Source of the DNA: Acinetobacter phage vB_ApiM_fHyAci03
Length of the DNA: 64,000 bases
Sequence record: NC_049438.1
Reading direction: 5' to 3' (one strand)
A program made the translations under genes and the position numbers. Below are positions 11,774 to 49,420 of this stretch, in pieces. The notes below the pieces were generated by a model, which saw only the letters and a program-made list of their open reading frames with translations, did not search any database and was not told the origin of the DNA. The first letter of the stretch is position 1. Each line of letters begins with the position of its first letter.

Positions 11774-12315
11774 TAGTATAAATTCTCTGAATATAATGTT
11801 CCGCCATTAGATTTGTCTCCGCCTACACGTCTAACAATTTGTTTTTGCTCGACTGCAATATGCCATGCTTCTTGGCGATCAACAAATCTAAAGTGATTTG
11901 TCACGAAGCCTTGAATTTGCTCTGGCATTTCATAAGTTCTATCGCCGAGACGATCAAGTATTTGCCATGCCAATTCGTCGAAGTGTCTGACACTTGGAAT
12001 AACAAGGTCACCAAATTTTGTTGCAGCACATACAATGCGTTCAGGCACATTTACTTCATTGCCATTAGGCAACTCATCAACATCATAATGCTCTAAACGT
12101 CTGCACTTCTCTTGCCATGCCAGATTAGCATGTGCTAAATGATTAATCTCAAACTCGTGAGCCTGTTTAAGTTTTGAAATTTCATCTTCTTTAGTAGGCA
12201 AAGAGTTGTCCACTAAATAGGTACTTTGACGTGCCATGTCCGGTTCCCAAGTATATTTACCTGCAGTGTTTAATTCTGAAAGATCTGTACCATTATCAAT
12301 CATATCATTCACCAA
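11773..12315 (-). CDS. hypothetical protein (180 aa)
   Basis: ORF track. Confidence 0.55.
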   Translation of the reverse strand: MVNDMIDNGTDLSELNTAGKYTWEPDMARQSTYLVDNSLPTKEDEISKLKQAHEFEINHLAHANLAWQEKCRRLEHYDVDELPNGNEVNVPERIVCAATKFGDLVIPSVRHFDELAWQILDRLGDRTYEMPEQIQGFVTNHFRFVDRQEAWHIAVEQKQIVRRVGGDKSNGGTLYSENLY

Positions 12316-12948: not shown

Positions 12949-13256
12949 GAGGCGTCTCCTTTAAGTAAAATTAACTCGGTTGTAGTATAGTTAAGTTGAT
13001 CGATAGTGATACAAGTATCTTCCCAACGTTTAACAACATCTTGAACTTCAGCAATGACTTCGTAGTCAGATCCTGGATAGTTGTCCCAATCTTCTGCACG
13101 TCGAATCGGTTCATCACTAAATGCAGTAATAGTTCCATCTTTGTCGACTGCTACATGAGCAGCCCATTCTGGCAAGTATACTGTTACGGGACCAGATTTT
13201 TCAGAACCTGAGATTAGTGTAACATTTAACGCATGCGGATAGTAAGTAATTTTCAT
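12945..13256 (-). CDS. hypothetical protein (103 aa)
   Basis: ORF track, coupled to upstream ORF. Confidence 0.5.
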   Translation of the reverse strand: MKITYYPHALNVTLISGSEKSGPVTVYLPEWAAHVAVDKDGTITAFSDEPIRRAEDWDNYPGSDYEVIAEVQDVVKRWEDTCITIDQLNYTTTELILLKGDAS

Positions 13257-13344
13257 GACGATTTCCTCATTAGGAATAATTATTTGATAGAGTTATTATA
13301 CTAACAAAAATAGCGAAAGTAAAACAAAACTTTCGCTATTTTAA

Positions 13345-13647
13345 TCATTTGCCGTAACGATTTACGAAATGTTCTACCATGTTGTCTGCAATAGTCGCAG
13401 CTGATGAAGAAACTCCATCGCATCCACGAAGGACACCGCTATTTGGCAGATATGCCAATGCACAAGCCTTCCAGAATTCACGTTTCTCTAATTCTGTGAT
13501 TGCAGGAGTAGGTGTACTAAAAAGCTGGTATTCACGAGCTTCATCCACCGATACAGTAGTTCTACATTTAGTACAACGAACTTTAGGTGGACTACTTAGC
13601 AATACTGCGTCGAAATTAAATTCATGATTGCATAATAAACTGTTCAT
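13345..13647 (-). CDS. hypothetical Cys-rich protein (100 aa)
   Basis: ORF track; CxxC pairs (CTKCRT). Confidence 0.45.
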   Translation of the reverse strand: MNSLLCNHEFNFDAVLLSSPPKVRCTKCRTTVSVDEAREYQLFSTPTPAITELEKREFWKACALAYLPNSGVLRGCDGVSSSAATIADNMVEHFVNRYGK

Positions 13648-13680
13648 AACTTACCTCTAGAGGGCATAGAGCCCTCGTTT

Positions 13681-14853
13681 TTAAAAGTCAAATAAATCTT
13701 CTAATGAAGAACGTTTTTCTGCTTGCATACCTGCAGATTCACACATACCTTCCAAAGGTTTCTTATATGTTTTTGTAAACAATGACATAACGTCAATATG
13801 TTTTAAAACATCTTCACGAATTTCTTTTGGAAGTTCGTTACCTGATGGCCATGCAATAACTTTGTCGCCGAATGGATTTCCAGGTTTCAAAGGCAAGATC
13901 ATAACTTTATCACCTTCACTAATATCCGGTAAGTTATCGAATGCCTTAATTGCACGTCGATACGTCAAAACACCACGAATATGACTAGGACATTTCAATC
14001 CAGGGAAGCCATTATCATCATATTTTGCAATGTTATTTGCAGTTCTTACACCTGCAATAACTTTGTAATCAAGATTTCTAAATTCATTTTCAAATTTCTT
14101 GAAATAGTCTTGAAGTGGCTTTTCACCTTCTTGGAGCATAATACGAATACTTTCTAACAATGCATCTTTGACCGCTTTAGGTGTAGATGATTGTTGAGTT
14201 TCCATGCCCATGATTTTCAAGTATGGCTCTTTAAAACGAGTACCTTCCATGTCATACACATTTAATGCATAACGTTTCTTAGCTCGCCAGAATCCACCAA
14301 TACCGTTTGAACCGAGTGGTGGACATGCAATTGCTTCGCGATCCATGAACATTAATTGCTCATAGTTGTTAAGATATTCGCACAGTTCTTGGAAGCCTGC
14401 ATTAATAACTGGTTCGATTTTCTTTGAACCTACTGCATCTAAGAAGTCAACTAATTTTTCAGTTGATGCAAATTTTTCAATGCCAACTTTATCAATGAGT
14501 GGACTCAATTCAATATACAATGAATCTGTATCACCATAAATTACATACGGATGATTAGTTGTTCCACACATTTCATTAAGGTATGCATTAATTTTTCGTT
14601 CTGTCCATTGAAGGACCAATTGTCCGAAAATAGTAATCGCTTCTGCATTACGAAGATCGTAAAATCTAAAGTAGATATTGCCGAGTGCACCATATAATGA
14701 ATTAATCAATAATTTTCGATTAATTTGATTCGTATCACACAAAACAATATAGTTTTCACATTCATGCTCAAGTTCAAGCAATTCTTCTTGTGAAAGTGTT
14801 TTGAGATATTCGATTTCGGATTCAGTTAAGTCACGACTAAAATCTAATTTCAT
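13681..14853 (-). CDS. 43: DNA polymerase gp43 C-terminal subunit (43B: palm motifs B and C, thumb)
   Basis: 390 aa; KLLINSLYGALG (motif B), YGDTDS (motif C), colinear with T4 gp43 residues ~520-898; own GGAG SD + ATG. Confidence 0.9.
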   Translation of the reverse strand: MKLDFSRDLTESEIEYLKTLSQEELLELEHECENYIVLCDTNQINRKLLINSLYGALGNIYFRFYDLRNAEAITIFGQLVLQWTERKINAYLNEMCGTTNHPYVIYGDTDSLYIELSPLIDKVGIEKFASTEKLVDFLDAVGSKKIEPVINAGFQELCEYLNNYEQLMFMDREAIACPPLGSNGIGGFWRAKKRYALNVYDMEGTRFKEPYLKIMGMETQQSSTPKAVKDALLESIRIMLQEGEKPLQDYFKKFENEFRNLDYKVIAGVRTANNIAKYDDNGFPGLKCPSHIRGVLTYRRAIKAFDNLPDISEGDKVMILPLKPGNPFGDKVIAWPSGNELPKEIREDVLKHIDVMSLFTKTYKKPLEGMCESAGMQAEKRSSLEDLFDF

Positions 14854-14874
14854 ATAAACTCCAAATTGATGGGA

Positions 14875-15040
14875 TTATTCTATAACATCATAATCAACTG
14901 ACACTATAGCTTTAATTGTTAGTTCCTTTGAACAGGATTCGCAATTGACTTTGAATTCTTCATCGGCATGTCTCCAATGCTCAAAGTAATCGGACGTGTC
15001 AAGTTCAGAATTGCAGTGTGGGCAGTATATTTCAAACATT
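14875..15040 (-). CDS. small zinc-ribbon protein (55 aa), not in ORF track
   Basis: Hand translation MFEIYCPHCNSELDTSDYFEHWRHADEEFKVNCESCSKELTIKAIVSVDYDVIE; GAGG SD 8 nt upstream; two CxxC pairs. Confidence 0.4.
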
Positions 15041-15149
15041 TCTATGCCTCAAAAGGGATATGACAATTATATCATATCCCTTATCAAAAGCTTAACTATA
15101 ATTCAGATTGTATAATGTAATACGAATCACTTTAGGCGTACGTTTATAT

Positions 15150-15368
15150 TCAAAACATCGCATTGATAACTTCGGCGCCGGCAATTACAGGATTTTTAAA
15201 CATGATACAACCTGTAACAAATCCGGCTAAAAACAACACAGGAATACAGATTAATAGGGCTACAAAAACTCGATACCACAAGCTAACGTATTCACCAATT
15301 GATTCACAATTTTCATTTGCTACTTTAATTTGTTCGAAGATATTCATAGGCCTAACTCCCACAGGCAT
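15150..15368 (-). CDS. small membrane protein (72 aa)
   Basis: ORF track; hydrophobic core VFVALLICIPVLFLAGFVTGCIMF. Confidence 0.35.
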   Translation of the reverse strand: MPVGVRPMNIFEQIKVANENCESIGEYVSLWYRVFVALLICIPVLFLAGFVTGCIMFKNPVIAGAEVINAMF

Positions 15369-15661
15369 TGGTTTAATAACTGATTGATTGAACGTTCGTT
15401 ATGTATAGATTCATTAAGAAGCTGTGCTATAACACGATAATCTGTTTCACTATTGCATCGAGCGTTAAGAATTGTTTGTGCATTTGTGCGACACATATCA
15501 AACGTTTTGAAGAAACTGTCATAACGAGGCAAACGAATTGCATTTAACACATTAGGTTTCCAAACAACATTGAACTTGCCATTGACTTCATCAATAAAGA
15601 ACAACATAGTTTCAATAGATTGAGTATATGTGTACTCTTCGGGCGATGTATAAACTCTCAT
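15344..15661 (-). CDS. hypothetical protein (105 aa) inside gene-43 split
   Basis: ORF track; 4-nt overlap with upstream ORF. Confidence 0.5.
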   Translation of the reverse strand: MRVYTSPEEYTYTQSIETMLFFIDEVNGKFNVVWKPNVLNAIRLPRYDSFFKTFDMCRTNAQTILNARCNSETDYRVIAQLLNESIHNERSINQLLNQCLWELGL

Positions 15662-16002
15662 CGACTTACCTCTGCATCAAAATCTACAAATTTAGCTCTA
15701 CATTCATGATAGACACTATGCATTAAATCTAACACTCCATAATTGAATTGAGAATTTTCTGATTTCCCAAGCAGAGCTCGGGAGCGTGCCGCTATTTCTG
15801 AATTTATAAATTCTAGAACTTCTTTACCTTGTGGATATCGTAACATCTTAGGCACGAATTGTGCGTCAATAGTAATATTACATCTGCCTCTTAACACAGT
15901 AGCTATAAATGGATAATATTCTATCCAATGCTCGCCTGTCGAGCTTGATATTACTCTATTTTGTCCATACATAATAACCTCGTAATATATCAAATTAATC
16001 AA
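15658..16002 (-). CDS. hypothetical protein (114 aa; alternative start at 15972 with GAGG SD)
   Basis: ORF track; preceded by conserved promoter/leader repeat and GC hairpin. Confidence 0.5.
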   Translation of the reverse strand: MINLIYYEVIMYGQNRVISSSTGEHWIEYYPFIATVLRGRCNITIDAQFVPKMLRYPQGKEVLEFINSEIAARSRALLGKSENSQFNYGVLDLMHSVYHECRAKFVDFDAEVSR

Positions 16003-16016
16003 ATCATCTAATTTCG

Positions 16017-16119
16017 GCGCACAGCGCCGGCTGCGCAGCAGCTATTCTGTACCGAACGGCAGATATAATTAGAGCGGTGAACCGGTAGAACCATTATAAC
16101 ATCAAAATTTTGCAAAGCA
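16017..16119 (-). repeat. copy A of ~58-bp conserved promoter/leader block + GC-rich palindrome (GCGCACAGC-GCCG-GCTGCGCAGC)
   Basis: 16061-16118 is reverse-complement-identical to 47922-47979 apart from 1 nt; followed by TTCGGT and GCTGCGCAGC-type hairpin. Confidence 0.7.
16093..16119 (-). promoter_or_regulatory. middle-promoter-like element (TGCTTTG + TATAAT) upstream of ORF 15658..16002
   Basis: Minus-strand TGCTTTG (16113-16119) and TATAAT (16093-16098); identical to the 47921 copy over 53 nt. Confidence 0.45.
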
Positions 16120-16167
16120 CTCGTGTGCTTTACGAATATAGATCATTTTATGAACACTCAAACCAAA

Positions 16168-16395
16168 TCATAACAATTCTTGGATTCTTCTAGATTTATA
16201 CTGCATAAGTTCGGTACGTGTCATTCCTGAAGTGTCCTGTTCACACTGCGCGTTAACTGTTTTAATCATAATGAGGGTATTATGATTTATATTATCTATA
16301 GGAAGTTGTCGGCAGTGTGTGTCTGACATAACTATTCTGCATGGATATTGCTTTGCGATATCTCTAATACTTTCATAATATTGCTTAAGTGACAT
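16168..16395 (-). CDS. hypothetical protein (75 aa)
   Basis: ORF track. Confidence 0.45.
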   Translation of the reverse strand: MSLKQYYESIRDIAKQYPCRIVMSDTHCRQLPIDNINHNTLIMIKTVNAQCEQDTSGMTRTELMQYKSRRIQELL

Positions 16396-16466
16396 ATCAA
16401 ATCTCCATAGATTTTAGAATAATTATATCATAATCAAAAAGCAAAGTAAATATTTTAGACAAAAAT

Positions 16467-16488
16467 AAAGGACCCATTTGGGTCCTTT
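16467..16488 (-). terminator. rho-independent terminator (bidirectional)
   Basis: AAAGGACCC-ATTT-GGGTCCTTT perfect 9-bp stem. Confidence 0.6.
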
Positions 16489-16501
16489 AGATAAAATGAA
16501 A

Positions 16502-16858
16502 TTATACAACGCTATACATTGTAACCGCAATAGGTAGAATTTCATTTGTCAATGTATTAAGGCTACCTTCAGTGATAGGAGTTCCTTGGAAACGATGAAC
16601 GATACGTTCAATTTCAACAACTTTTCGTTTATTAGTTTCTCGATCACGTGGATCAATTACCAATTTGATATTATCATCTTTAAATTCCAGTGCAAGGATC
16701 CCGAGAGTAATTTTTGCATCTAACGAGCGTGTAGAACGAGTATCAATTACTGGAGCTGCTGTGTTAAATTGTAATTTAGATTGCTGGATCATAATATCTC
16801 TACGTACTTTGTAAGTTGATAGGATTATTATATCAATAACCCTATCACATGTAAACAA
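16502..16858 (-). CDS. hypothetical protein (118 aa, TTG start abutting 43A stop; real start possibly internal Met)
   Basis: ORF track only; no SD at TTG. Confidence 0.3.
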   Translation of the reverse strand: MFTCDRVIDIIILSTYKVRRDIMIQQSKLQFNTAAPVIDTRSTRSLDAKITLGILALEFKDDNIKLVIDPRDRETNKRKVVEIERIVHRFQGTPITEGSLNTLTNEILPIAVTMYSVV

Positions 16859-16859
16859 A

Positions 16860-18368
16860 TTATTTCATTAATTTTTTAATCACTTCGGCATTACGCTTTG
16901 CAGCCATCATTTTCTTCTTCCATTCTTTACGTTGGAAGAACACTTTAGTAATTTCTTGTGGAATGATACCTTGCTTTGTCTTCGAATACATCATACCGCT
17001 TGGCGAGCATGAGAATTCATTTGAAGGACTCGGTGCAATCTTATTAATGAAATCACTAAGTTTAGGCGGTGCAAATTGTCCTGCAATTGTTTCTGGGCTA
17101 ATGTTTACCTGGCGAATGATTGACGGATACAGAGATGTTACGTCAAACGACAAAACATATTTGTACGCACCAGGCACAGGGTTTTTAACATATGCGCCTT
17201 CATACGGTTGTCGAACATTTGGCTTAGCTTCCGGTAAAACTAAGTGCTCGGCTTTTAATGAGTTGAAGATAATTGCATCCCAAGTTTTCACAGGACTCAT
17301 TACTGTTGCAATATTCATTCGAGCGTAATAGCCCATTGAAATTGACAGGTTGATAAATCCTCGTTTTGCGTCAATTGCTTGTACACAGTACACATCGACA
17401 ATGTTATATGAAATATAACGCTGGTGGTTTGATTCACGTAATTTGTCGATTGGCCCATCATATTCTAATTTGTTGATGCCAGCTTCATATTCTGCAATAT
17501 AATCGAGTTTATATGATGGCTGTGAAGTAAACGCAAACTTTTTGTATAAATCCATGTAATCGAGAATCATGATTCCAGAAATATTGAAAATTTCTTTATC
17601 TCCATACATGTTTTGAATGACTTTTGACGTTACTTTACCAAAAGGACTTAAACGTTTCATGTTCGAGACGCCAAGAACGTTTTTGATACGATTTACAATA
17701 TATGGAATATCAAATCCTTCAACGTTCCAACCGGTGAAGATGACAGGAGTTTTTTCTTCCCATAAACGAATGTATTCTAACAGCATTTCCTTTTCTGTTT
17801 CGAATGGCATATACACAACTTTATCTAAAATATGTTGTGGAACTTCATCGCCGCCTTCATCAATTGATTTGCCTGCAAGAACCGGATCCCACTTTGAAAC
17901 ACGTCCACGTTGAGAGTTCAACAAGTCAAACACGTAGTATTTGTCATCAATAGAATCATAGTGTGTAATTGCATCAATTTCATATTTTGCAAAAGTCGGA
18001 TTCGGGAACTCTCCTGCTGTTACCTCGATGTCACAGTTTGCAACACGAATTGCATTTCTGTTATATGTGATGTCCTTTTTTCCATACACATCAGAAATAT
18101 ATGCAAGTTTGAAGTCATCCATACCTAAAATTTCTACAATTCCACGTGTCTTTTGCATCCAGTCTTTAGCCTCACGAATGGAGCTAAAACGTTTAGGAAT
18201 ACATGGCTTGCCATAAATGTCTTTATATTTTGATTCAACGCCTTCTTTGGCATGAATGAACAATGTAGGCTCATATGGAATTTCACGAACTTTTTCGACG
18301 CCATTTTCCACATAACGCTCTTGAATAAGGTCACCAGATTGTTCAACTACTAGATAGAAATTATCCAC
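16860..18368 (-). CDS. 43: DNA polymerase gp43 N-terminal subunit (43A: 3'-5' exonuclease domain and palm motif A)
   Basis: 502 aa; FDIEV exo I, DVTSLYPSII motif A; ends ...AEVIKKLMK* exactly where T4 gp43 continues; GTG start with AAGGAGA SD. Confidence 0.9.
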   Translation of the reverse strand: MDNFYLVVEQSGDLIQERYVENGVEKVREIPYEPTLFIHAKEGVESKYKDIYGKPCIPKRFSSIREAKDWMQKTRGIVEILGMDDFKLAYISDVYGKKDITYNRNAIRVANCDIEVTAGEFPNPTFAKYEIDAITHYDSIDDKYYVFDLLNSQRGRVSKWDPVLAGKSIDEGGDEVPQHILDKVVYMPFETEKEMLLEYIRLWEEKTPVIFTGWNVEGFDIPYIVNRIKNVLGVSNMKRLSPFGKVTSKVIQNMYGDKEIFNISGIMILDYMDLYKKFAFTSQPSYKLDYIAEYEAGINKLEYDGPIDKLRESNHQRYISYNIVDVYCVQAIDAKRGFINLSISMGYYARMNIATVMSPVKTWDAIIFNSLKAEHLVLPEAKPNVRQPYEGAYVKNPVPGAYKYVLSFDVTSLYPSIIRQVNISPETIAGQFAPPKLSDFINKIAPSPSNEFSCSPSGMMYSKTKQGIIPQEITKVFFQRKEWKKKMMAAKRNAEVIKKLMK

Positions 18369-19063: not shown

Positions 19064-19629
19064 AGCTGCTTCAACTCTTTAATTTCTTTAGGATTTTTAG
19101 TGATAGATTTAAGGAATTCATCTGTTGCTAAAGCTTTAGCCTCTCTAAGAACTGTTTGCAATTTGCCTTTTCGTTCAAGTAATTGACGATAGTTGTAGGC
19201 AACCTGTGAATTCACTTTATAGTAAGCCATAAGAAGCTTGAGTATGTATTGATCTTTAATGCTTTCATCTAACTTTAGTGATTTAGAAAATCGTCGTCCA
19301 TACGGAATAAGGTTCATCAAATAATTATGATGCACTTGATCTGGCAATGAACTTAACATTAAATTAGCATTGTACACAGTAGTCAAGCAATCCATATGCT
19401 GGCTTAACATATTATCAATCATGAATTTTGAATAGTTTTCAAATTGACTGACATTCAATTCACCCTTTACAGAGTTGATGTTATTAAGAATCACAAAGAG
19501 TTCATTTTCAGGTTTCTCTTTATATTCTTCAATAAGTTTTTTAACCATGTCCCAGTCTTTATTAGCCCAGGCTGCCTGATGCGGATTTAGAACTTCCTCA
19601 TCATCGTCAAATAAACATATCATGCTCAT
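19060..19629 (-). CDS. 62: clamp-loader subunit gp62
   Basis: 189 aa; position between regA and 44; overlapping stop/start. Confidence 0.7.
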   Translation of the reverse strand: MSMICLFDDDEEVLNPHQAAWANKDWDMVKKLIEEYKEKPENELFVILNNINSVKGELNVSQFENYSKFMIDNMLSQHMDCLTTVYNANLMLSSLPDQVHHNYLMNLIPYGRRFSKSLKLDESIKDQYILKLLMAYYKVNSQVAYNYRQLLERKGKLQTVLREAKALATDEFLKSITKNPKEIKELKQL

Positions 19630-19690
19630 TTTAATTTACTCACTTAAATTTTAAGGCTATTATATCACATAATAGCCTAAATTGATAACC

Positions 19691-29492: not shown

Positions 29493-29580
29493 TTTGTTTC
29501 CTCTGTTAAATACGATAATTAATCTATCGTATTTATTTTATGAGGCTATTATATACAATAACCTCATATGTGTAAATACT

Positions 29581-42903: not shown

Positions 42904-42994
42904 TGGCGGAAGGTGAGAGGATCGAACTCTCAAGGCTTTTACACTCGACTGTTTTCAAGACAGTTCCCATCGCCGGCCGTTGGGTTGACCTTCC
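42904..42994 (-). tRNA. tRNA-Ser (anticodon UGA), type II
   Basis: Hand fold: GGAAGGT/ACCTTCC acceptor, anticodon arm ACTGT-CTTGAAA-ACAGT, long variable arm, T loop TTCGATC, CCA encoded; 91 nt. Confidence 0.75.
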
Positions 42995-43666: not shown

Positions 43667-44233
43667 TCAGTCGATAACGATTGTAGGATTTGTTTCAGTT
43701 AAAATTGCATCGAATTCAAGATCGAAGAAATCAATTGTAGATTTGAGCTCATCAATTTGTTCTTGAATTTCCATAATTGTAGGTTTTTCTCGTTTTTCCA
43801 TTAATTGCTTGAGCTCATCATCATGTGCGGCTTTAGACAATTTAACTTCATAATCACGTTCGATGTTAGCAAATGTAGCACGAGCACTAGCTAGCTCTTT
43901 AACTAAACGTGTATACAAAGCTTTAAGTCGAGGTAAAATATGTGTACGATACGTTAATGCATCGTTGATAGACATTTGTTCTTTGCCTACGGTTACCATC
44001 GTTTCAAAATTTGCTTTATTGACCTTTTTGCGAAGATCGAATTCTGCATCAAGTTTGTCTTTAATCGATTGAATGTTTTTGCGAGATTTGTCAACAAATT
44101 CAGCAGTTTTGATTCCAGTGCTAATCTCTACACCATTACGGAATACACCACAGAATGTCATTTCACGAAGATTTTCGTCGAAAGACACTTTGTTGCGTTT
44201 AAGTGTTACTAATGCACGAGCGATGGTAGTCAT
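43667..44233 (-). CDS. hypothetical coiled-coil protein (188 aa)
   Basis: ORF track; between tRNA sub-clusters. Confidence 0.55.
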   Translation of the reverse strand: MTTIARALVTLKRNKVSFDENLREMTFCGVFRNGVEISTGIKTAEFVDKSRKNIQSIKDKLDAEFDLRKKVNKANFETMVTVGKEQMSINDALTYRTHILPRLKALYTRLVKELASARATFANIERDYEVKLSKAAHDDELKQLMEKREKPTIMEIQEQIDELKSTIDFFDLEFDAILTETNPTIVID

Positions 44234-44309
44234 TCAAATTTCCTCTAATCAAAATAATCTTTAATTTATGTAGTTAATTATATAACATAAATCATTAAAA
44301 AGCTTTGCT

Positions 44310-44546
44310 TTACGAATAAGTTTGTGTTGGTTCATAAAATAAACGTTCTTTCAACATTCTATCGAGCTTTGCAATTGCGGCAGATCGATTAAGGTACTGT
44401 GAACGTTTATTTGCACTTTCAGCAATTAAACCAGTCGGTAAATGAGTAACACGTACTGCATTAAAGGGGCGATTGACCCATCGACGTGCACCACTTGTTC
44501 TATACTCATCAATTCTCAATTCACTGGGTTTGAATGAATAATCCAT
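44310..44546 (-). CDS. release-factor catalytic-domain (RF/ArfB-like) mini-protein lacking GGQ
   Basis: 78 aa; SGARRWVNRPFNAVRVTHLPTGLIAESANKRSQYLNRSAAIAKL aligns to class-I RF GGQ domain ([35 protein letters not shown]) with GGQ replaced by RRW. Confidence 0.55.
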   Translation of the reverse strand: MDYSFKPSELRIDEYRTSGARRWVNRPFNAVRVTHLPTGLIAESANKRSQYLNRSAAIAKLDRMLKERLFYEPTQTYS

Positions 44547-44559
44547 ATCAATATTCTCA

Positions 44560-44802
44560 TTACTTCAATTTAATTTTGGCTTCAAATACGTAGCGATAAT
44601 TGTTATCACATAATATTTCAGCTCGTTCATATGTTGTGGCCATTCGCAATACTGCTCCAGTATATGAAACGATTGCAAAAACACAATCAGTTGAATCCGG
44701 TGATGCGATATCACCAACTTTAAAACGAAGTTTTCTATAAGTATATTTATCATCATACTTACATAAGAATTTGGCTAAACTTAACGAGAATGTGAATCTC
44801 AT
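44560..44802 (-). CDS. hypothetical protein (80 aa)
   Basis: ORF track. Confidence 0.4.
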   Translation of the reverse strand: MRFTFSLSLAKFLCKYDDKYTYRKLRFKVGDIASPDSTDCVFAIVSYTGAVLRMATTYERAEILCDNNYRYVFEAKIKLK

Positions 44803-44907
44803 AACTTTACCGTCTTCGTTAAAAATTCCATAGATGCTTCGTTGAGAAGTTTTATCTATGCAGTTTCGACAGATCTAATGTTTCATATTTATCCTCATTA
44901 AATTAAA

Positions 44908-44985
44908 TGGTACATGACCTCGGACTCGAACCGAGAGGCTCTTGTTTCTAAGACAAGAAGGTATACCAATTCCCGTCAGTCATGC
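44908..44985 (-). tRNA. tRNA with anticodon UAG (Leu codon CUA) but type-I (short variable arm) architecture; identity uncertain
   Basis: Hand fold: acceptor GCATGAC/GTCATGT (one GU), anticodon arm CTTGT-CTTAGAA-ACAAG, T arm CTCGG-TTCGAGT-CCGAG, CCA encoded; irregular D arm. Confidence 0.5.
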
Positions 44986-45064
44986 ATGGTGGATACTGGG
45001 AGTGCTCGCACCTCCAATCAACTACGTTGTCCGCTGCTTTACTATTTAAGCTAACAGTACCCAA

Positions 45065-45140
45065 TGGAGACGTCGACTGGACTTGAACCAGCATCGTCAC
45101 GGATTTGCAATCCGTCGTATAACCATTCTACCACAACGTC
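45065..45140 (-). tRNA. tRNA-Cys (anticodon GCA)
   Basis: Hand fold: acceptor GACGTTG/CGACGTC (one GU), anticodon arm ACGGA-TTGCAAA-TCCGT, T loop TTCAAGT, discriminator T, CCA encoded; 76 nt. Confidence 0.65.
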
Positions 45141-45147
45141 TTAAACT

Positions 45148-45222
45148 TGGTGGGCCCAGGGAATTTCGAAATCCCAACCTTCAGATTATGAGTCTGCTGC
45201 TCTACCATTGAGCTACACGAGT
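45148..45222 (-). tRNA. tRNA-Ile/Met-like (anticodon CAU) with non-pairing acceptor stem; possible pseudo-tRNA
   Basis: Canonical D arm TAGCTCAATGGTAGAGC, anticodon loop CTCATAA, T arm GGGAT-TTCGAAA-TTCCC, 3' TGGGCCC-A-CCA; but 5' strand ACTCGTG cannot pair with 3' TGGGCCC. Confidence 0.45.
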
Positions 45223-45306
45223 ATAAAAGTAACTTTTTAATATCAGCATCTATTAATTGATATTAAAAAGTTACCTCAATTAAGAGGTAACCCGAGGTAA
45301 TTCAAA

Positions 45307-45582
45307 TTATTGAACCAAACCTAATTGAGCAGCTTCTTCATAATCCGATTGTTCGATAGCATCTAAGATCGTATCAAATGATTCATCAACAATAGTTTGA
45401 ATGACTTGTCCATTTCGAGCTTCAAATGTTACAGCTACTAAGCCGTTTTCATATTGTAAGAGGCCAATGATTTTAGCAGCATCAAGAACAAAACGGCTAA
45501 CATTTGTGTTTTGTTCAACAGCGCGAGATACAGTAAGAGCAATGCGAGTAGCCATGATGTTTTCCTTTAAGGTTGAGTACAA
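45307..45582 (-). CDS. hypothetical protein (91 aa; internal-protein position)
   Basis: ORF track. Confidence 0.45.
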   Translation of the reverse strand: MYSTLKENIMATRIALTVSRAVEQNTNVSRFVLDAAKIIGLLQYENGLVAVTFEARNGQVIQTIVDESFDTILDAIEQSDYEEAAQLGLVQ

Positions 45583-45588
45583 AAATAT

Positions 45589-45804
45589 TTATTCAGCAGT
45601 TTTTGAACGTTTTTCAATAATTGCTGAGATTAATGCAAAAATCATTGAGATTGAAATAAATTTTAAAGATGTTAATCCTAAAGCTTTAATTTCAGCATTA
45701 GTCATGAATATACCGAATACTGCAGTAGTCAATGCAATTACCATGCCAACGAAAAAGATCCAATAGGCAGAAGTTTCAAAAAATTCAATAACTTTAGCAT
45801 TCAT
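45589..45804 (-). CDS. small membrane protein (71 aa)
   Basis: ORF track; two hydrophobic helices. Confidence 0.4.
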   Translation of the reverse strand: MNAKVIEFFETSAYWIFFVGMVIALTTAVFGIFMTNAEIKALGLTSLKFISISMIFALISAIIEKRSKTAE

Positions 45805-45890
45805 GATAATTTACTCAATGATTTATTTGATAAAACTATAATAACACAATTAATTTGCAATGTAAACTGCTTTATGAAATAATTTTCAAA

Positions 45891-46346
45891 TTATGCAGTC
45901 CACTCTAAATCAAGATCTTGTACATATTCACTTGCAGCAATAATCGGGTTGCTAATGAAATCTGCCTTTGGTAACTCACGTTGTCCAATATCATATGATA
46001 ATGTAACATGTGGTTGATAGTCAGGAAAATCATAAGTTGCACCTAATGCCATTGCATATTTAAAGCGCTCATGAAGATAATCTGAATCAATGAGTATAAC
46101 AAGAGCTCGTTCACCTGTTTTAGTGTCAAAAACCTTTAACTTACCGGTGACACCAATTTGTTCGCCTATCAACTGTGGCTGATAAGGAATTTTCACCCGA
46201 GAATATGCAATTGTGCAATGCAATTTGTCTCGCGGGACAGGCTTGTAGAGATCCAATGATTTTTGGATCTCTTGTAACAAGTCTAATGTTTCATCAGCGA
46301 AATTGATTGCGGCATAAGTACCTTTGCCAACTTCACTTAGTTTCAT
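45891..46346 (-). CDS. 57B: gp57B-like protein (151 aa)
   Basis: Size and position upstream of 57A/1 as in T4. Confidence 0.5.
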   Translation of the reverse strand: MKLSEVGKGTYAAINFADETLDLLQEIQKSLDLYKPVPRDKLHCTIAYSRVKIPYQPQLIGEQIGVTGKLKVFDTKTGERALVILIDSDYLHERFKYAMALGATYDFPDYQPHVTLSYDIGQRELPKADFISNPIIAASEYVQDLDLEWTA

Positions 46347-46585
46347 TATTCAGCCTCTGGTTCAGCTTTGGCTTCTTCATCACCAACAGCAAGACCAGCT
46401 ACAGCTTGAACGATTGTATCTAATTCAAGGTTGCCGGTTTCATCCGGTTGCAAACCTAAAATTTGTGCAATAGATTGAAGTGTTTGAGATAATTGTTGAT
46501 TGTGCTGATGAAGCGCCTGATTAGCTTCGATAGCATCTAACAATTTTGCTTTAGTTTCAAGTAATGTTTGGTTAACGTCTGTCAT
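46346..46585 (-). CDS. 57A: tail-fibre assembly chaperone gp57A
   Basis: 79 aa, Gln/Leu-rich coiled coil, acidic C-terminus; same size and position as T4 gp57A. Confidence 0.6.
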   Translation of the reverse strand: MTDVNQTLLETKAKLLDAIEANQALHQHNQQLSQTLQSIAQILGLQPDETGNLELDTIVQAVAGLAVGDEEAKAEPEAE

Positions 46586-47309
46586 TTTGTAATACCTCTG
46601 TGTGAAATAAATTCGAAATTTTCTGTTTAAATTCCTCTAATGTTCCATCATTATGGATGACTGGATCACCTGGTTGCCGTTGAAGTCCTGCTTCAGTAAT
46701 GTGATTGTCTGCATTAGTGTTAGTATTTATACTATCACGCTCTACAAAAATTAATCGTGCGTTGATGAAACGCATAAAATCAATTTCATGTTGTTGACGA
46801 ATGTCTGTGACAATAAAAATCTTCGCGCCATTTGCAAATTCGGTGATGTACTGATTCATCATTAAACGAAGCCAGAAATATTTGTCATAGTGTTCACAAA
46901 CAAGATCTGTGCCTAAAATTTGCATAAGTCTGCGAACTGTCCACGGCTCTATATTTCTATTGATGCTATTAAAAACACTCAAATAACTTTCGAAACCAGA
47001 GGTCAAGTTTTCACGAAGACCGTATTGCTCAATGAGAATTTTAATACATTTTCGAAGCCAATCATTTACATCAGAATTTGACAAAATCAACGGGGATTCT
47101 CTATCGTATGGAGAGTCGCCATTAAAATCAGCAAATGATAAGCTTAACCCAGACTTTGTTGAAAGATTCAATTCAGAATAGGTTTCAAATAATACCTTTT
47201 TGATGGGCAGAGCAAGTGCATATTTGACCGCACCTAGCTCTTCTACCATGTAATCAGCCATAGTGTCTTTGCCACTACGTTTCTTACCTACAATAGAAAC
47301 AATTGTCAT
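46572..47309 (-). CDS. 1: deoxynucleoside monophosphate kinase gp1
   Basis: 245 aa; VGKKRSGKDTMADY P-loop, RRLMQILGTDL, HITEAGL motifs colinear with T4 gp1. Confidence 0.85.
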   Translation of the reverse strand: MTIVSIVGKKRSGKDTMADYMVEELGAVKYALALPIKKVLFETYSELNLSTKSGLSLSFADFNGDSPYDRESPLILSNSDVNDWLRKCIKILIEQYGLRENLTSGFESYLSVFNSINRNIEPWTVRRLMQILGTDLVCEHYDKYFWLRLMMNQYITEFANGAKIFIVTDIRQQHEIDFMRFINARLIFVERDSINTNTNADNHITEAGLQRQPGDPVIHNDGTLEEFKQKISNLFHTEVLQNDRR

Positions 47310-47875
47310 AAGATTTCTCGTTTGCCGTTCATTAACATATCCGAAATACTTTTCCGTGTTTCTATTATAACACCATTTTTTTCTACAGTGAAGTAGCTAT
47401 ATTGAAAGGTTACGTTAGCAAAAATAGCCGGGTCTGATTCTTCTGTGTAATTGAATTCAAGGTCACCAATAACTTGTGGCCACGCGTCATGATAGTGAAT
47501 TGACATAAGTGGTGTCGTTTTATCATTAGATAATATGTGCAGTGTTATAAATTCTGGCAAGACACCAGGATTAGCACCATTATTGTCATGAGTTAGATAG
47601 TTATTGATTGATAGCATCCATGTATAAATGTCTGTCCATGCATCTAGATTTTCATCGATTAGCACGCGGCATACCAATGGCTCAAATTCAAATGTTGAAC
47701 CTGGGCGGTTAGCACGCCCGAGGCCTTTATTGCCTAGTGCCATATTGACTGTTGGTATACTGATACCTGGGATTAATGCAGATTGGACATTGAGTTTGAA
47801 AGCATCGGTGATTTTAGCATCAGGGATGTCCAATACAAAGTTAGTTATGTTAGTTTGGTTAAATTGTAGTGTCAT
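47306..47875 (-). CDS. 3: tail completion / sheath stabiliser gp3
   Basis: 189 aa; synteny 4-2-3-1 as in T4. Confidence 0.6.
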   Translation of the reverse strand: MTLQFNQTNITNFVLDIPDAKITDAFKLNVQSALIPGISIPTVNMALGNKGLGRANRPGSTFEFEPLVCRVLIDENLDAWTDIYTWMLSINNYLTHDNNGANPGVLPEFITLHILSNDKTTPLMSIHYHDAWPQVIGDLEFNYTEESDPAIFANVTFQYSYFTVEKNGVIIETRKSISDMLMNGKREIL

Positions 47876-47920
47876 AATGTGCCTTGTTTAAAATTTGATC
47901 ACTTAGCTTGTTAAGCCCTG

Positions 47921-47947
47921 TGCTTTACAAAATTTTGATGTTATAAT
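47921..47947 (+). promoter_or_regulatory. middle-promoter-like element (MotA-box-like TGCTTTA + TATAAT) in gp3-gp2 intergenic region
   Basis: TGCTTTA at 47921-47927, 14-nt spacer, TATAAT at 47942-47947; part of duplicated 58-bp block. Confidence 0.45.
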
Positions 47948-47953
47948 GGTTCT

Positions 47954-48092
47954 ACCGGTTCACCGCTCTAATTATATCTATTCGGTCGGAGAAGATAGAG
48001 TTTCAGATGATATAGATGTATCTGATATATCTGCATTGAAAATATAGAATATTGTGCTGCGCACAATGATGCGCAGCATCTAATTTATTTCT
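47954..48092 (+). ncRNA. candidate ~135-nt small RNA (promoter to bidirectional terminator) between gp3 and gp2
   Basis: Promoter-like -10 at 47942, no ORF >8 codons, strong terminator hairpin + ATCTAATTTATTTCTT at 48056-48093. Confidence 0.3.
48056..48077 (-). terminator. terminator hairpin immediately after gp2 stop (also 3' end of candidate + strand sRNA)
   Basis: GCTGCGCA-CAATGA-TGCGCAGC perfect 8-bp stem. Confidence 0.6.
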
Positions 48093-48924
48093 TCCATACT
48101 TTTGAGGCTGCAAAACGTTTACCTTGTGATACAAATTGTTGAAGTGGCATTAACACGACATTACCCCAATCAGCAGGTTTAATTTCAACGAATCTGCCTT
48201 TTACATGAGCAGGCAAATATGCTTTAATCATTACATCAGCGCCATTGAAGCCTTTAACTTTTGACCAATCAATTTTAAGCACAGTATTATTTGTGATAGT
48301 TTTTGTAGATGAATAACTTTTTAATAACTCTTCTAAAAATTGTTGTCGTGCTTTAGGTGGAATATAATGCAAGTTAAGGCCATGAAATAAAGTTGTGCCT
48401 GCAACTTTGGAACGGGACGTTCCTAAAAATATGATAAGTGGATATTTATCCCAAAATGGTAACTTATCTTTATGTTTAGCATCATATATGAAAGCATAAA
48501 GTTTACCCGGCTGTGGCTTGACCACAGAGTGTCCTCGGACACCTTTAGCAAGAGTTTCTTTAAACCATTTCTCAGATTTATTGTTTACTGCTGCACCTTC
48601 ATTACGAATTTTTTCTCGCATCGATTGTCTAAAGCTATTAATCAAAATTGCTTCACGTTCTTTAGGTGTCAACTTATTTTTAGGTTTGTTCTTAGCCACT
48701 TCAGCTGCATAAGCGAGCTTGATTTTATCTCTATAACGTGTCATGCTTCTAGTAAAAGTCGCATATGGGATTCCACGTTCTTCGGCAAATGCTTTACCTT
48801 GTACGCCTTTAGCTTTGGCCTTGTACCAATCAACACCAATATTAACCCATGCTAGTTCTTGGCGTGTGATTTTAGGCTGAAGATTTTTTGGCACTTCGGC
48901 TTCATCTAATTGAAAAATACTCAT
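48085..48924 (-). CDS. 2: DNA end-protector protein gp2
   Basis: 279 aa vs T4 274 aa; synteny; basic protein. Confidence 0.7.
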
Positions 48925-48932
48925 AATAACTC

Positions 48933-49388
48933 CTAAATTTTCATCCCAAGTTTCCTGAGTCCTTCTTCCGTCAGTACTCTGAATTTTACATTTCGTTTTT
49001 CAGCTAGCGCTTGTGCTGCTTTCCACTTATCTAAGTTCACTTGCCATGTGTAGCATTCATTTTCATATCTACGTTTTGCACCGGCGGTCAATTTTGCAGG
49101 AGGCTTTGGAGGCATAGTTTCTTTCTTTGGCTTAATTTCAATGAAGAATTCTTGCCCTTCATGTGTTTTGAACCAAATGTCCATAAAGTAACGACGTTTA
49201 CGTCCATCTGCATGAGAAAAATATTGGATGACCACCTCTTCACTTGACCAGTACTTTACACGAGGATCAGTATCTAACCAGTTGAAGTACCACTTCTCCC
49301 ATGACGACCTATATGTTACTTTGTCAACATGCCCTTTGTACTTTGACTTATTTTTGACGATGTACTTACCGCTGTATGCCACATTCAT
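48933..49388 (-). CDS. 4: head completion protein gp4
   Basis: 151 aa vs T4 150 aa; synteny; late promoter TATAAATA upstream on minus strand. Confidence 0.7.
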
Positions 49389-49397
49389 ACCTCCATT

Positions 49398-49405
49398 TAT
49401 AAATA
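49398..49405 (+). promoter_or_regulatory. T4-type late promoter TATAAATA (for 53-5-6... baseplate operon)
   Basis: Exact TATAAATA ~35 nt upstream of gp53 GTG. Confidence 0.6.
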
Positions 49406-49420
49406 CTTTTATTAAAATTT

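Follow-up and report, generated by a model that had tools for sequence, protein, structure and literature searches.

Architecture of the gene 3-gene 2 unit

The window analysed here (the whole stretch of DNA, 64 kb in length) derives from a T4-like Acinetobacter phage of the Lazarusvirus group. A compact unit of opposite orientation lies between its gene 3 and gene 2, which are both encoded on the minus strand. The features of this locus, together with those of a sister copy elsewhere in the window, are as follows:

47306-47875, minus strand: gene 3 (tail completion and sheath stabiliser), the left flank, from the ORF list and 98-100% identity to annotated gp3 of AM101 and related phages
47920-47979, plus strand: core of the repeated cassette, comprising box and extended -10 plus ~26 bases at the 5' end of the predicted transcript (inverted repeat I1; length 60 nt, 98%, partner 16061-16120)
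47921-47927, plus strand: MotA-box-like TGCTTTA, 14 nt 5' of the -10 hexamer, read from the sequence
47939-47947, plus strand: extended -10 TGT-TATAAT (TATAAT at 47942-47947), without variation in any copy of three genomes
47948-48002, plus strand: conserved leader GGTTCTACCGGTTCACCGCTCTAATTATATCTATTCGGTCGGAGAAGATAGAGTT with tandem GGTTC(T)ACC / GGTTCACC, showing 3-4 differences from Hadassahvirus while the region upstream diverges
48003-48033, no strand assigned: AT-rich repeat zone with one 18-nt unit TCAGATGATATAGATGTA (48003-48020) plus TCTGATATATCTG, of 9-nt periodicity
48054-48079, no strand assigned: GC-rich hairpin of 10 bp, terminator-like on both strands by fold energy
48080-48095, plus strand: interrupted U-rich tail (CUAAUUUAUUUCUUCC), overlapping the gp2 stop codon
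48085-48924, minus strand: gene 2 (DNA end protector), the right flank, from the ORF list and annotated relatives
15990-16120, minus strand: sister copy with box TGCTTTG, -10 and leader, GC hairpin insert (CGGCGC-tgt-GCGCCG), AT-rich stretch and SD, from the sequence and a repeat search

The initial annotation had described a promoter-like element facing against gp3 and gp2, followed by about 100 nt of non-coding sequence and a hairpin. Such a discrete plus-strand unit is indeed present, with TGCTTTA beginning at 47921, TATAAT at 47942 and a stable bidirectional hairpin closing the non-coding stretch. Transcription is predicted to start near 47954. As the longest ATG ORF past this position has 7 codons, the earlier description of this stretch as lacking any ORF of more than 8 codons is valid for the transcript. 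The hairpin, reported as 8 bp with a caatga loop between the arms GCTGCGCA (48056-48063) and TGCGCAGC (48070-77), extends to 10 bp at 48054-48079 and abuts the gp2 stop. Its predicted free energy is -17.1 kcal/mol on the plus strand and -17.5 kcal/mol on the minus strand, with z about -3.7 on either. The tail CTAATTTATTTCTTCC follows directly 3' of the hairpin and overlaps the final gp2 codons; its U-tract is interrupted and of moderate quality only. A hairpin of different sequence occupies the equivalent place between gp3 and gp2 in phage AB1I1T.

The core of the unit (47920-47979) matches 16061-16120 on the reverse strand at 59 of 60 positions. The 44-nt core of this repeat occurs twice against 0.00 occurrences expected, which is far above chance. 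The sister copy precedes a 104-aa ORF (ATG 15972, stop 15658) within the split DNA-polymerase region. A leader common to the transcript and to the unit upstream of ORF 15658-16002 had been claimed; what the two share is a 60-nt segment that includes the promoter. From the predicted start, transcription would cover about 26 nt of it (47954-47979), with weaker similarity beyond. The accompanying suggestion of trans action on the other leader is not supported, the two leaders being identical in sense and not complementary. A regulator binding site common to both leaders is compatible with the data.

Copies of the cassette in Acinetobacter phages

A search for homologues in related phages, as the initial annotation had proposed, was productive and recovered five copies per genome together with T4-type counterparts at the same site. 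What had been called the second copy of a cassette is thus a genuine copy, but one of five per genome in Lazarusvirus and Hadassahvirus. Their five sites are shared between Lazarusvirus (AM101, Kimel) and Hadassahvirus (AbTZA1), and the number of copies per genome is five, rarely six, across 50 records. Three of them lead genes, namely the split-polymerase ORF, uvsY.-2 and rnh, and the downstream genes are the same in both genera. The other two (gp3|gp2 and srd|tk.4) are orphans that are oriented against their neighbours and are each closed by a bidirectional hairpin. From AAAATTTTGATG to TATATCT, the cassette core does not vary among the five copies of AM101. The copies of Hadassahvirus all read CTCTAAATTTA(T/G)CT and those of Lazarusvirus all read CTCTAATTATAT(C/T)T; by this comparison, the copies evolve in concert within each genus.

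Two other forms of spread were considered and rejected. Gene shuffling at the polymerase-region cassette is not seen, as the ORF downstream of this copy in AbTZA1 is a diverged homologue of the 104-aa ORF of the window and not a replacement. Likewise, the cassette does not behave as a widely spreading mobile element; scans of IMG/VR with the core sequence returned only AbTZA1, Kimel and a chance match.

The gp3|gp2 locus itself is variable in other respects. By alignment, the 18-nt unit is present in fewer than one copy in Minot, one in the window, two in AM101, three in MD-2021a, four in phi1_092060 and five in vB_AbaSI_3 (TRF scores 6.1 copies in the last, partial units being counted). In Maestro, the -10 and leader are tandemly duplicated at this site. 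Homing-endonuclease genes are inserted beside the cassette in Konradin, Maestro and X20, and RB49-like phages carry an antisense ORF at the gene 3|gene 2 position. The 16-kb and srd copies have a 7-bp stem, AAAGCAC/GTGCTTT, at or before the box; the gp3|gp2 copy has AAGC...GCTT only.

Promoter class

The MotA box of T4 has the consensus (a/t)3TGCTTtA and lies 12 +/- 1 bp from the -10 (PMC2988021). The gp3|gp2 copy matches it with TGCTTTA, although the three preceding bases are CTG and not A/T. The box of the copy adjoining gene 25 reads ATTTGCTTTA, and the rnh copy carries TTTACA at 17 nt (a sigma-70 -35) in place of a MotA-like box. In every boxed copy, the spacer between box and hexamer is 14 nt, outside the range of T4. 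Other TGCTTYA...TAWAAT sites of AM101, for example those upstream of gene 39 and dsbA, have spacers of 11-13 nt, and the gene 3|gene 2 counterparts in T4, Bp7, X20, CF-SP2 and myPSH1140 have 13 nt. The TGT-TATAAT element (47939-47947) is an excellent sigma-70 -10 with TGn. A canonical sigma-70 promoter was nevertheless rejected: a simple sigma-70 scan made no call because of the 14-nt spacing and the lack of a -35 at 16-18 nt. In AM101, which is 98% identical to the window, motA and asiA are annotated beyond the span that matches the window.

Counterparts in T4 and other genera

T4 carries TGCTTTA-N13-TATAAT in its gene 3|gene 2 spacer, antisense to both genes and in the same orientation as in the window. 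The 18-mer TATAATGRRTCTAAGTCC occurs at exactly three sites in complete T4-type genomes: 3|2 (plus), srd|modA (plus) and 25|uvsY (minus). The T4 3|2 promoter therefore has its -10 and first ~20 transcribed bases in common with only two others, the orphan at srd|modA and P_uvsY, the promoter of oriF. By position and strand, these sites are three of the five Lazarusvirus sites. The two T4 orphans are missing from the published middle-promoter table. Their predicted transcripts lack a terminator and would reach modA ~10 nt and gene 2 ~60 nt from the start.

Similar pairs are found beyond T4. Karamvirus has one 18-mer, of its own sequence, common to 25|uvsY and 3|2. The corresponding pair in Aeromonas phage 31 consists of two annotated repeats, repeatA_5 on the gene 25 side and repeatA_3 at 3|2, whose sequences agree almost completely for ~70 nt. 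The repeatA elements of Aeromonas phages 31 and 44RR2.8t (GenBank repeat_region) resemble the cassette in being multi-copy, in having a hairpin, a TATATAAT hexamer and a conserved ~25-nt segment downstream, and in their placement, antisense between genes 3 and 2 and sense beside gene 25. They differ in their unrelated sequence and in having no TGCTT box. The record notes for repeatA give only similarity to other repeatA copies. Antisense MotA-type promoters at 3|2 are also present in Bp7 (Dhakavirus), CF-SP2 (Gelderlandvirus), X20 (Winklervirus), myPSH1140 and Acinetobacter phage AB1I1T. Pairing with the uvsY promoter is established for T4, Karamvirus and Aeromonas phage 31, and for Bp7, CF-SP2 and X20 the match is one of position and orientation only. 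The exact Bp7 17-mer is single-copy in Dhakavirus genomes, so co-variation is not demonstrable there. Overall, at least seven genera keep an orphan promoter at 3|2, and three of these lineages show its co-variation with the uvsY promoter. A literature search found no published description of the cassette, the T4 orphan promoters or repeatA.

On the basis of these sequence comparisons, the gp3|gp2 unit is shown to be one member of an ancient, multi-copy family of predicted prereplicative promoter-plus-leader modules of T4-like phages.

Coding potential and RNA structure

A mechanical 33-codon ATG ORF spans 47946-48047 on the plus strand and could in principle encode a small protein with an acidic repeat, given that the 18-nt unit amounts to 6 codons and that an 83-aa version is annotated as hypothetical in phi1_092060. 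This product is most improbable. The ATG lies inside TATAATG, upstream of any start from the cassette promoter, and has no Shine-Dalgarno sequence; close relatives differ in frame and stop through a 1-nt indel and a TAG/TAC difference. The same ATG opens unrelated short frames in the other four copies, and the protein has no Pfam match. It was therefore rejected.

The transcript was also compared with known RNAs. Searches with Rfam (gathering and permissive thresholds) and ARAGORN returned only the tRNA cluster at 42-45 kb, and the best Rfam match over 47850-48150 was a eukaryotic snoRNA with E = 0.41. Structure prediction, a check suggested by the initial annotation, gave no conserved secondary structure for the leader: single-sequence fold z-scores were -1.6 and -0.5, with no significant structure apart from the terminal hairpin, and an 11-sequence alifold yielded a 3-bp stem only and no covariation. 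The leader is under sequence constraint and not structure constraint. A k-mer search found no site of at least 14 nt complementary to the 142-nt transcript elsewhere within the 64-kb window; a single 13-mer is at chance level.

A possible origin-type function

We consider that the gp3|gp2 unit may be an origin-type element, that is, a promoter for a cis-acting primer or R-loop, and assign this reading a probability of roughly 0.4. Since the T4 sister copy of the module is oriF, the unit more likely acts on DNA in place than as a free regulatory RNA. oriF (ori(uvsY)) and oriG (ori(34)) each comprise a MotA promoter and an AT-rich unwinding element downstream (PMC3016281). Like these origins, the gp3|gp2 unit has a predicted prereplicative promoter with a MotA-type box and a perfect -10; an AT-rich stretch that may unwind easily lies within ~50-100 bp of it. 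In the T4 record, oriF is placed at 115321 and its primer given as the uvsY transcript; P_uvsY starts at 115371, which places the origin point 50 nt downstream, and the equivalent distance at oriG is 64 nt. In the window, the segment at 47994-48053 (+40 to +100) ranks within the lowest 0.8% of 60-bp segments of the 64 kb by duplex stability (z = 2.5). The family also includes a member at the position of oriF, between gene 25 and the uvsY cluster and on the same strand, and another beside gene 34; the positional match is one at the family level. The primer RNAs of T4 oriE and oriG are antisense to late genes (PMC3016281), as the predicted RNA of the unit would be.

Under this reading, the module would fire prior to replication, as oriF and oriG do in T4. 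A short non-coding transcript would invade the low-stability DNA about 50-100 nt downstream and form an R-loop, the RNA of which may prime rightward leading-strand synthesis or otherwise open the DNA for it. The hairpin would restrict read-through into gp2, and the RNA would act in cis on DNA instead of as a diffusible regulator. The identity of the leader among copies probably reflects a common recognition step (by a protein, or by RNA polymerase with phage factors), gene conversion, or both; a candidate target for such a factor is GGTTCTACCGGTTCACC.

Several observations count against an origin role. The sister copy at 16 kb has a stability rank of 14.5%, since its GC hairpin comes next, and a DNA unwinding element is thus not common to all copies. 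Three of the five copies serve as ordinary promoters of genes. A distance of 3-5 kb separates the T4 orphan promoters from the annotated oriE and oriA, and the gp3|gp2 copy itself is 3.3 kb from the equivalent of T4 oriE. Plasmid screens reportedly yielded oriF and oriG only, and not the T4 orphan promoters. The cassette also differs from oriF and oriG in its spacer (14 nt instead of 12 +/- 1), in the closure of its transcription by a hairpin after ~130 nt and in the putative status of its origin role. T4 origins reportedly have neither a common motif nor a specific downstream sequence (PMC3016281), in contrast to the ~55-nt leader that is identical in five copies of the cassette. Because R-loop formation at oriF needs no specific sequence (PMC3016281), origin function alone fails to explain the conserved leader. 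A purine-rich transcript was examined as an R-loop signature and set aside. It is strong in the T4 3|2 transcript (purine fraction 0.80) and oriF (0.72) and unremarkable here (0.65, the maximum over many windows).

T4 oriE, which has 12-nt iterons, offers a further comparison. It shares with the unit a late-gene neighbourhood (genes 4-53-5), a primer RNA antisense to a late gene and short direct repeats beside the promoter. It differs in lying ~3.3 kb away, inside gene 5, with an early promoter of the opposite direction; the repeats of the unit are 18 nt long (9-nt period) and vary in number between isolates.

Alternative explanations

An unlikely alternative is that the orphan is a promoter-terminator cassette of the PeSL/PmSL type (PMC2839356, PMC4122927): a gene-less module kept similar by gene conversion that serves mainly as a recombination or insertion point and yields a functionless transcript. 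Both systems pair a short, repeated intergenic stem-loop with a strong early or Mot-box promoter, and indels and inserted genes accompany both. Several copies have a stem-loop that overlaps the box or lies ahead of it (e.g. AAAGCAC-n-GTGCTTT), and PmSLs with TGCTT boxes are described in phage nt-1 (PMC4122927). The concerted evolution of the copies fits gene conversion, and the plasticity of the locus (variable 18-nt repeat, Maestro duplication, homing-endonuclease insertions, RB49-like antisense ORF) agrees with this reading. However, PeSLs are numerous and found mainly in hyperplastic regions, whereas the unit has just five copies at fixed positions in core regions, with the same downstream genes in two genera. 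PeSLs also conserve the promoter and stem-loop and run straight into an SD and start codon (PMC4122927), while the unit is conserved 3' of the -10, at least ~55 nt into the transcript. No gene directly follows the gp3|gp2 or srd copy, and in the other copies a conserved leader of 60-110 nt intervenes. The retention of the orphan at 3|2 in at least seven genera and its co-variation with uvsY in three lineages argue for selection and against a relic.

Two further readings, both rather improbable, concern the RNA and the act of transcription. A trans-acting small non-coding RNA of ~135 nt might work as a decoy by capturing a protein that recognises the mRNA leader shared by uvsY.-2, rnh and the polymerase-region ORF, or might pair with a host target. 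The unit starts from a promoter-like element of its own and ends in a stable hairpin, the leader is conserved without coding, and two orphans per genome with a 5' end identical to three mRNA leaders are the layout expected of a titrating decoy. No such RNA is yet characterised in T4-type phages (PMC3014915); the small non-coding RNAs C and D of T4 are similar in kind (PMC3014915), but are located in the tRNA cluster, are processed from a tRNA precursor and have no sequence or positional relation to the unit. Against a trans-acting role stand the results above (no conserved structure, covariation, Rfam family or complementary site in the window) and the variation of the RNA body by 0-5 copies of the 18-nt repeat among phages that are >95% identical. 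The T4 orphan transcripts, which lack a terminator, would continue into modA and gene 2, so what is conserved is not a discrete RNA. This same read-through suits transcriptional interference or antisense control, in which a convergent prereplicative promoter would block minus-strand read-through, or an antisense RNA would act against the 3' ends of neighbours (gp2; modA and gene 2 in T4), and thereby time their expression. In all lineages examined, the two orphans point towards the 3' end of the gene beside them, and the moderate U-tract makes some read-through into gp2 plausible. Nevertheless, strong bidirectional hairpins close both Lazarusvirus orphans before the neighbouring gene, the gene faced varies by lineage (gp2, a homing endonuclease, tk.4 or modA), and interference leaves the co-variation with the uvsY promoter and the conserved leader unexplained.

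Significance

The comparisons flag two T4 promoters that the published middle-promoter table omits, and the variable 18-nt repeat is a ready strain marker for Acinetobacter therapeutic phages. Should the RNA prove to be trans-acting, this phage family would gain its first characterised example (PMC3014915). A review of T4 replication recognises no local motif common to T4 origins (PMC3016281). The findings here indicate that the oriF promoter is not unique in sequence, with gene-less twins at conserved sites in four lineages. What defines a T4-type origin could be tested on the small targets that these twins offer, namely the -10 hexamer and a leader of ~20-55 nt.

More doubtful, though possible, is a generalization in which a promoter-plus-leader module, conserved in sequence but specific to each lineage, marks some of the replication origins of T4-like phages, such that the five Lazarusvirus copies are its origins. 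If this were true, T4 would possess, at gene 3|gene 2 and srd|modA, two orphans of the oriF kind that have gone unrecognised as origins or primer promoters, and these may underlie the broad 'oriE' and 'oriA' signals. The identity of the leader within each genome would then imply a further factor that recognises it.

Sequence elements and genomic context

The orphan cassette, a promoter-like element with a leader and a terminal hairpin at 47915-48095 (+), occupies the 209 bp that separate gene 3 from gene 2. Lazarusvirus genomes (T4-like Acinetobacter phages) match a 2-kb query around it at 96-99% identity. Neighbouring genes were named from ORF positions and the annotation of AM101, a relative about 98% identical:

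46572-47309 (-), gene 1
47306-47875 (-), gene 3
48085-48924 (-), gene 2
48933-49388 (-), gene 4

Genes 53 and 5 come next, on the plus strand. Elsewhere in the window, Rfam gives a partial tRNA match at 45159-45216 (-) (39 bits, model positions 7-64) where ARAGORN makes no call; ARAGORN calls tRNA-Ser (42904-42994) and tRNA-Leu (44908-44985), neither of which is on the Rfam gathering-threshold list.

The promoter-like element and hairpin described in the initial annotation are both present. The former consists of TGCTTTA (47921-47927), a 14-nt spacing and TGT-TATAAT (47939-47947); a simple sigma-70 scan does not call it, since a -35 is lacking at 16-18 nt. The hairpin, GCTGCGCA/caatga/TGCGCAGC, has 10 pairs in full (48054-48079) and folds stably whichever strand is considered (-17 kcal/mol, z about -3.7). 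An interrupted T-rich tail 3' of it overlaps the gene 2 stop, and the U-tract is only moderate. In duplex stability, the 60-bp window 47994-48053 ranks within the lowest 0.8% of the 64 kb, and position +50 (48004), counted from the predicted start, is the beginning of the AT-rich repeat zone. A T4-type early-promoter motif (TTTAC..., 17 nt, TGATATAAT / TATAAT), which differs from the cassette promoter, recurs upstream of small minus-strand ORFs at 16395-16445 (-), 1262-1303, 19626-19667 and 29533-29561.

A family of five copies

Promoter and leader recur on the opposite strand at 16061-16120, with 59 of 60 bases shared and none expected by chance. The repeat initially proposed is thus real, but the family has five members rather than two: the 209-bp spacer finds five places (rarely six) in each of 50 phage records. 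The AM101 copies were located by the core GGTTCTACCGGTTCACC (n=5 sites).

Copies of the cassette in AM101
16.2 kb (+), srd / tk.4 spacer; orphan, opposed to its neighbours
47.1 kb (-), within the split DNA-polymerase region; leads a small ORF; the 16-kb copy of the window
81.0 kb (+), gene 3 / gene 2 spacer; orphan, opposed to its neighbours; counterpart of the window cassette
119.3 kb (-), gene 25 / uvsY.-2 spacer; leads uvsY.-2
150.2 kb (-), rnh / gene 34 spacer; leads rnh

All share AAAATTTTGATGnTATAATGGTTCTACCGGTTCACCGCTCTAATTATATCT. On its 3' side lies a looser TTCGGTCGGAGAAGATAG, and beyond that AT-rich sequence bearing TAGATGTAT / TGATATATC motifs; two copies contain an inserted GC hairpin. 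The srd copy resembles the gene 3|gene 2 copy in leading no gene and in ending, after about 150 nt, at a strong bidirectional hairpin. In the rnh copy a TTTACA -35 at 17 nt replaces the TGCTTTA box, and the shared module therefore starts at the extended -10. The same five sites are occupied in AbTZA1 (Hadassahvirus) and in Kimel, with five copies in each.

About 3 kb (window ~13000-17000, AM101 43730-49410) separate the two parts, 43A and 43B, of the DNA polymerase gene. This stretch carries small ORFs and one copy of the cassette; in AM101 it also has a MobE HNH endonuclease gene on the opposite strand, which AbTZA1 lacks. No uvsY is annotated beside gene 25 in this lineage (AM101 118443-119372, stretch L004); the cassette there leads directly, via a TATAAATA late promoter, to uvsY.-2, which encodes DUF2685 (Pfam E = 1e-23), and the following 105-aa ORF in AM101 has no Pfam match.

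Kinship with the T4 origin oriF

On the strand antisense to genes 3 and 2, the T4 spacer between them has the sequence TGCTTTA-N13-TATAAT-GGGTCTAAGTCC. Two complete T4-type genomes (IMG/VR) each contain the 18-mer TATAATGRRTCTAAGTCC exactly three times, and three T4 stretches contain it once each. The T4 sites are:

gene 3|gene 2 spacer (+)
srd|modA spacer (+), AAATGCTTTA-N12-TATAAT, also antisense to its neighbours
gene 25|uvsY spacer (-), P_uvsY

At P_uvsY the T4 record annotates the replication origin oriF and gives the uvsY transcript as its primer RNA. By position and strand, the three T4 sites correspond to three of the five Lazarusvirus sites. Karamvirus has another 18-mer (TATAATGGTTTTGAGTTC), found twice per genome, at 25|uvsY and 3|2. 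In Aeromonas phage 31, the annotated repeats repeatA_5 (beside gene 25) and repeatA_3 (antisense at 3|2) show near-identity across some 70 nt, a stretch that takes in TATATAAT and the next 25 nt. Such sharing in T4, Karamvirus, Aeromonas phage 31 and Lazarusvirus-type phages means that, in four lineages, the predicted gene-less 3|2 promoter and the uvsY-side promoter have in common a -10 and an initial transcribed sequence that are specific to the lineage.

Both T4 orphans are perfect MotA-type promoters, antisense to genes 3/2 (NC_000866 75955-76060 (+); L027 2956-3061) and to srd/modA (11786-11907 (+); L028 2787-2908). They share TGGTATAATGRRTCTAAGTCC-TCCA with P_uvsY/oriF; neither the published 2010 table of about 58 T4 middle promoters nor the feature list of the T4 record includes them.

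Equivalents in other genera were judged by the same strand and position in the 3|2 spacer.

Promoters in the gene 3|gene 2 spacer of other phages
Bp7, antisense, TGCTTAA-N13-TATAAT
Salmonella phage CF-SP2, antisense, TGCTTTT-N13
Enterobacter phage myPSH1140, antisense, CGCTTTC-N13
Serratia phage X20, antisense, TGCTAAA-N13
Acinetobacter phage AB1I1T (more distant), antisense, TGCTGTC-N14-TATAAT-GGTTCTAC

Leader and terminal hairpin are both different in AB1I1T. An 84-codon antisense ORF replaces the promoter in RB49-like phages; that of Whisky (L033 257-511) has its own terminator and looks coiled-coil-like by eye. Jiaodavirus and a Vibrio phage lack the spacer altogether. In Klebsiella phage 05F (Slopekvirus), where gene 2 is not adjacent, a gene-free, very AT-rich region of about 370 bp upstream of gene 3 (L038 114-482), with numerous AGATCT/GATC motifs and a recurring tgatctataat unit, looks origin-like.

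Interpretation

The simplest reading, tentatively held at a probability of about 0.4, is that the orphan promoter may be an origin-type, cis-acting element, because an orphan prereplicative promoter has kept its position for very long and has its sequence counterpart in the oriF promoter. In T4, oriG and oriE have primer RNAs antisense to late genes, and the annotated origin point is 50 nt downstream of the mapped start at oriF and 64 nt downstream at oriG. The hairpin would block transcription from entering gene 2 and would also terminate the gene 2 message. Against this reading, the T4 orphans are 3-5 kb away from annotated oriE and oriA, the 16-kb copy has no low-stability region downstream, and the box spacing is 14 nt instead of the 12 +/- 1 of T4. 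In addition, R-loops form in T4 without any specific sequence requirement, which leaves the conserved leader in need of a further explanation.

A relic of the promoter and stem-loop cassettes already known from T4-type phages (PeSL/PmSL; PMC2839356, PMC4122927) is unlikely: upstream stem-loops, local plasticity and gene conversion all fit, but the leader conserved downstream, the five fixed sites and cross-genus retention would be left unexplained. Somewhat less probable still is an RNA acting in trans or as a protein decoy. Two orphan RNAs do have their 5' end in common with three mRNAs; however, their length is not conserved, the T4 versions have no terminator, and neither structure nor a target in the window was found. 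An Rfam search returned no family, the 142-nt transcript folds ordinarily except for the terminal hairpin (z = -1.6; leader alone, z = -0.5), and an alignment of eleven leaders gave only a 3-bp stem and no covariation. The action on the 16-kb leader suggested initially is not supported, since the two leaders are identical in sense and cannot pair, and no complementary site of at least 14 nt to the transcript exists elsewhere in the window. These are not the properties of a structured or base-pairing RNA.

An antisense or insulator role is comparably doubtful: the promoter always points toward its neighbour's 3' end, but that neighbour changes between lineages and the units here are closed by strong hairpins. 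Very unlikely is a small protein from the 33-codon mechanical ORF that opens within TATAATG; it has no ribosome-binding site, and its frame is unconserved among near-identical relatives.

The oriF and oriG architecture is already known, and repeatA is annotated, unexplained, in two Aeromonas phage records. In a limited library, we found no description of the Acinetobacter-phage cassette or the two T4 orphan promoters, and no account of the latter's sequence kinship with P_uvsY.

Plasticity of the spacer

Between Lazarusvirus and Hadassahvirus, the gene 3|gene 2 spacer diverges freely upstream of the -10, while only 3-4 positions differ from the -10 to about +55. Genus differences are common to the copies within one genome (Hadassahvirus CTCTAAATTTA(T/G)CT, Lazarusvirus CTCTAATTATAT(C/T)T), which indicates either gene conversion or co-evolution with a sequence reader.

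In Maestro, tandem duplication of the -10 and 50-nt leader (L012, alignment A2 columns 70-150) yields two promoters in series. Konradin and Maestro carry a mobC-like endonuclease gene between cassette and gene 2. Insertions of this or other homing-endonuclease genes between orphan promoter and gene 2 occupy L009 645-942 (Konradin), L012 560-859 (Maestro) and L030 1-604 (Serratia X20); several phages being affected, the spacer counts as a hot spot for insertion.

The AT-rich part contains an 18-nt unit, TCAGATGATATAGATGTA (48003-48020), repeated in tandem with a 9-nt sub-period (window 48003-48033, L006 420-527). Its copy number varies from <1 to 5 by alignment among phages >95% identical, and the TRF copy score in vB_AbaSI_3 is 6.1. 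This variable-number repeat separates therapeutic Acinetobacter phages that are otherwise >95% identical, and may serve as a strain marker or represent an iteron-like array.
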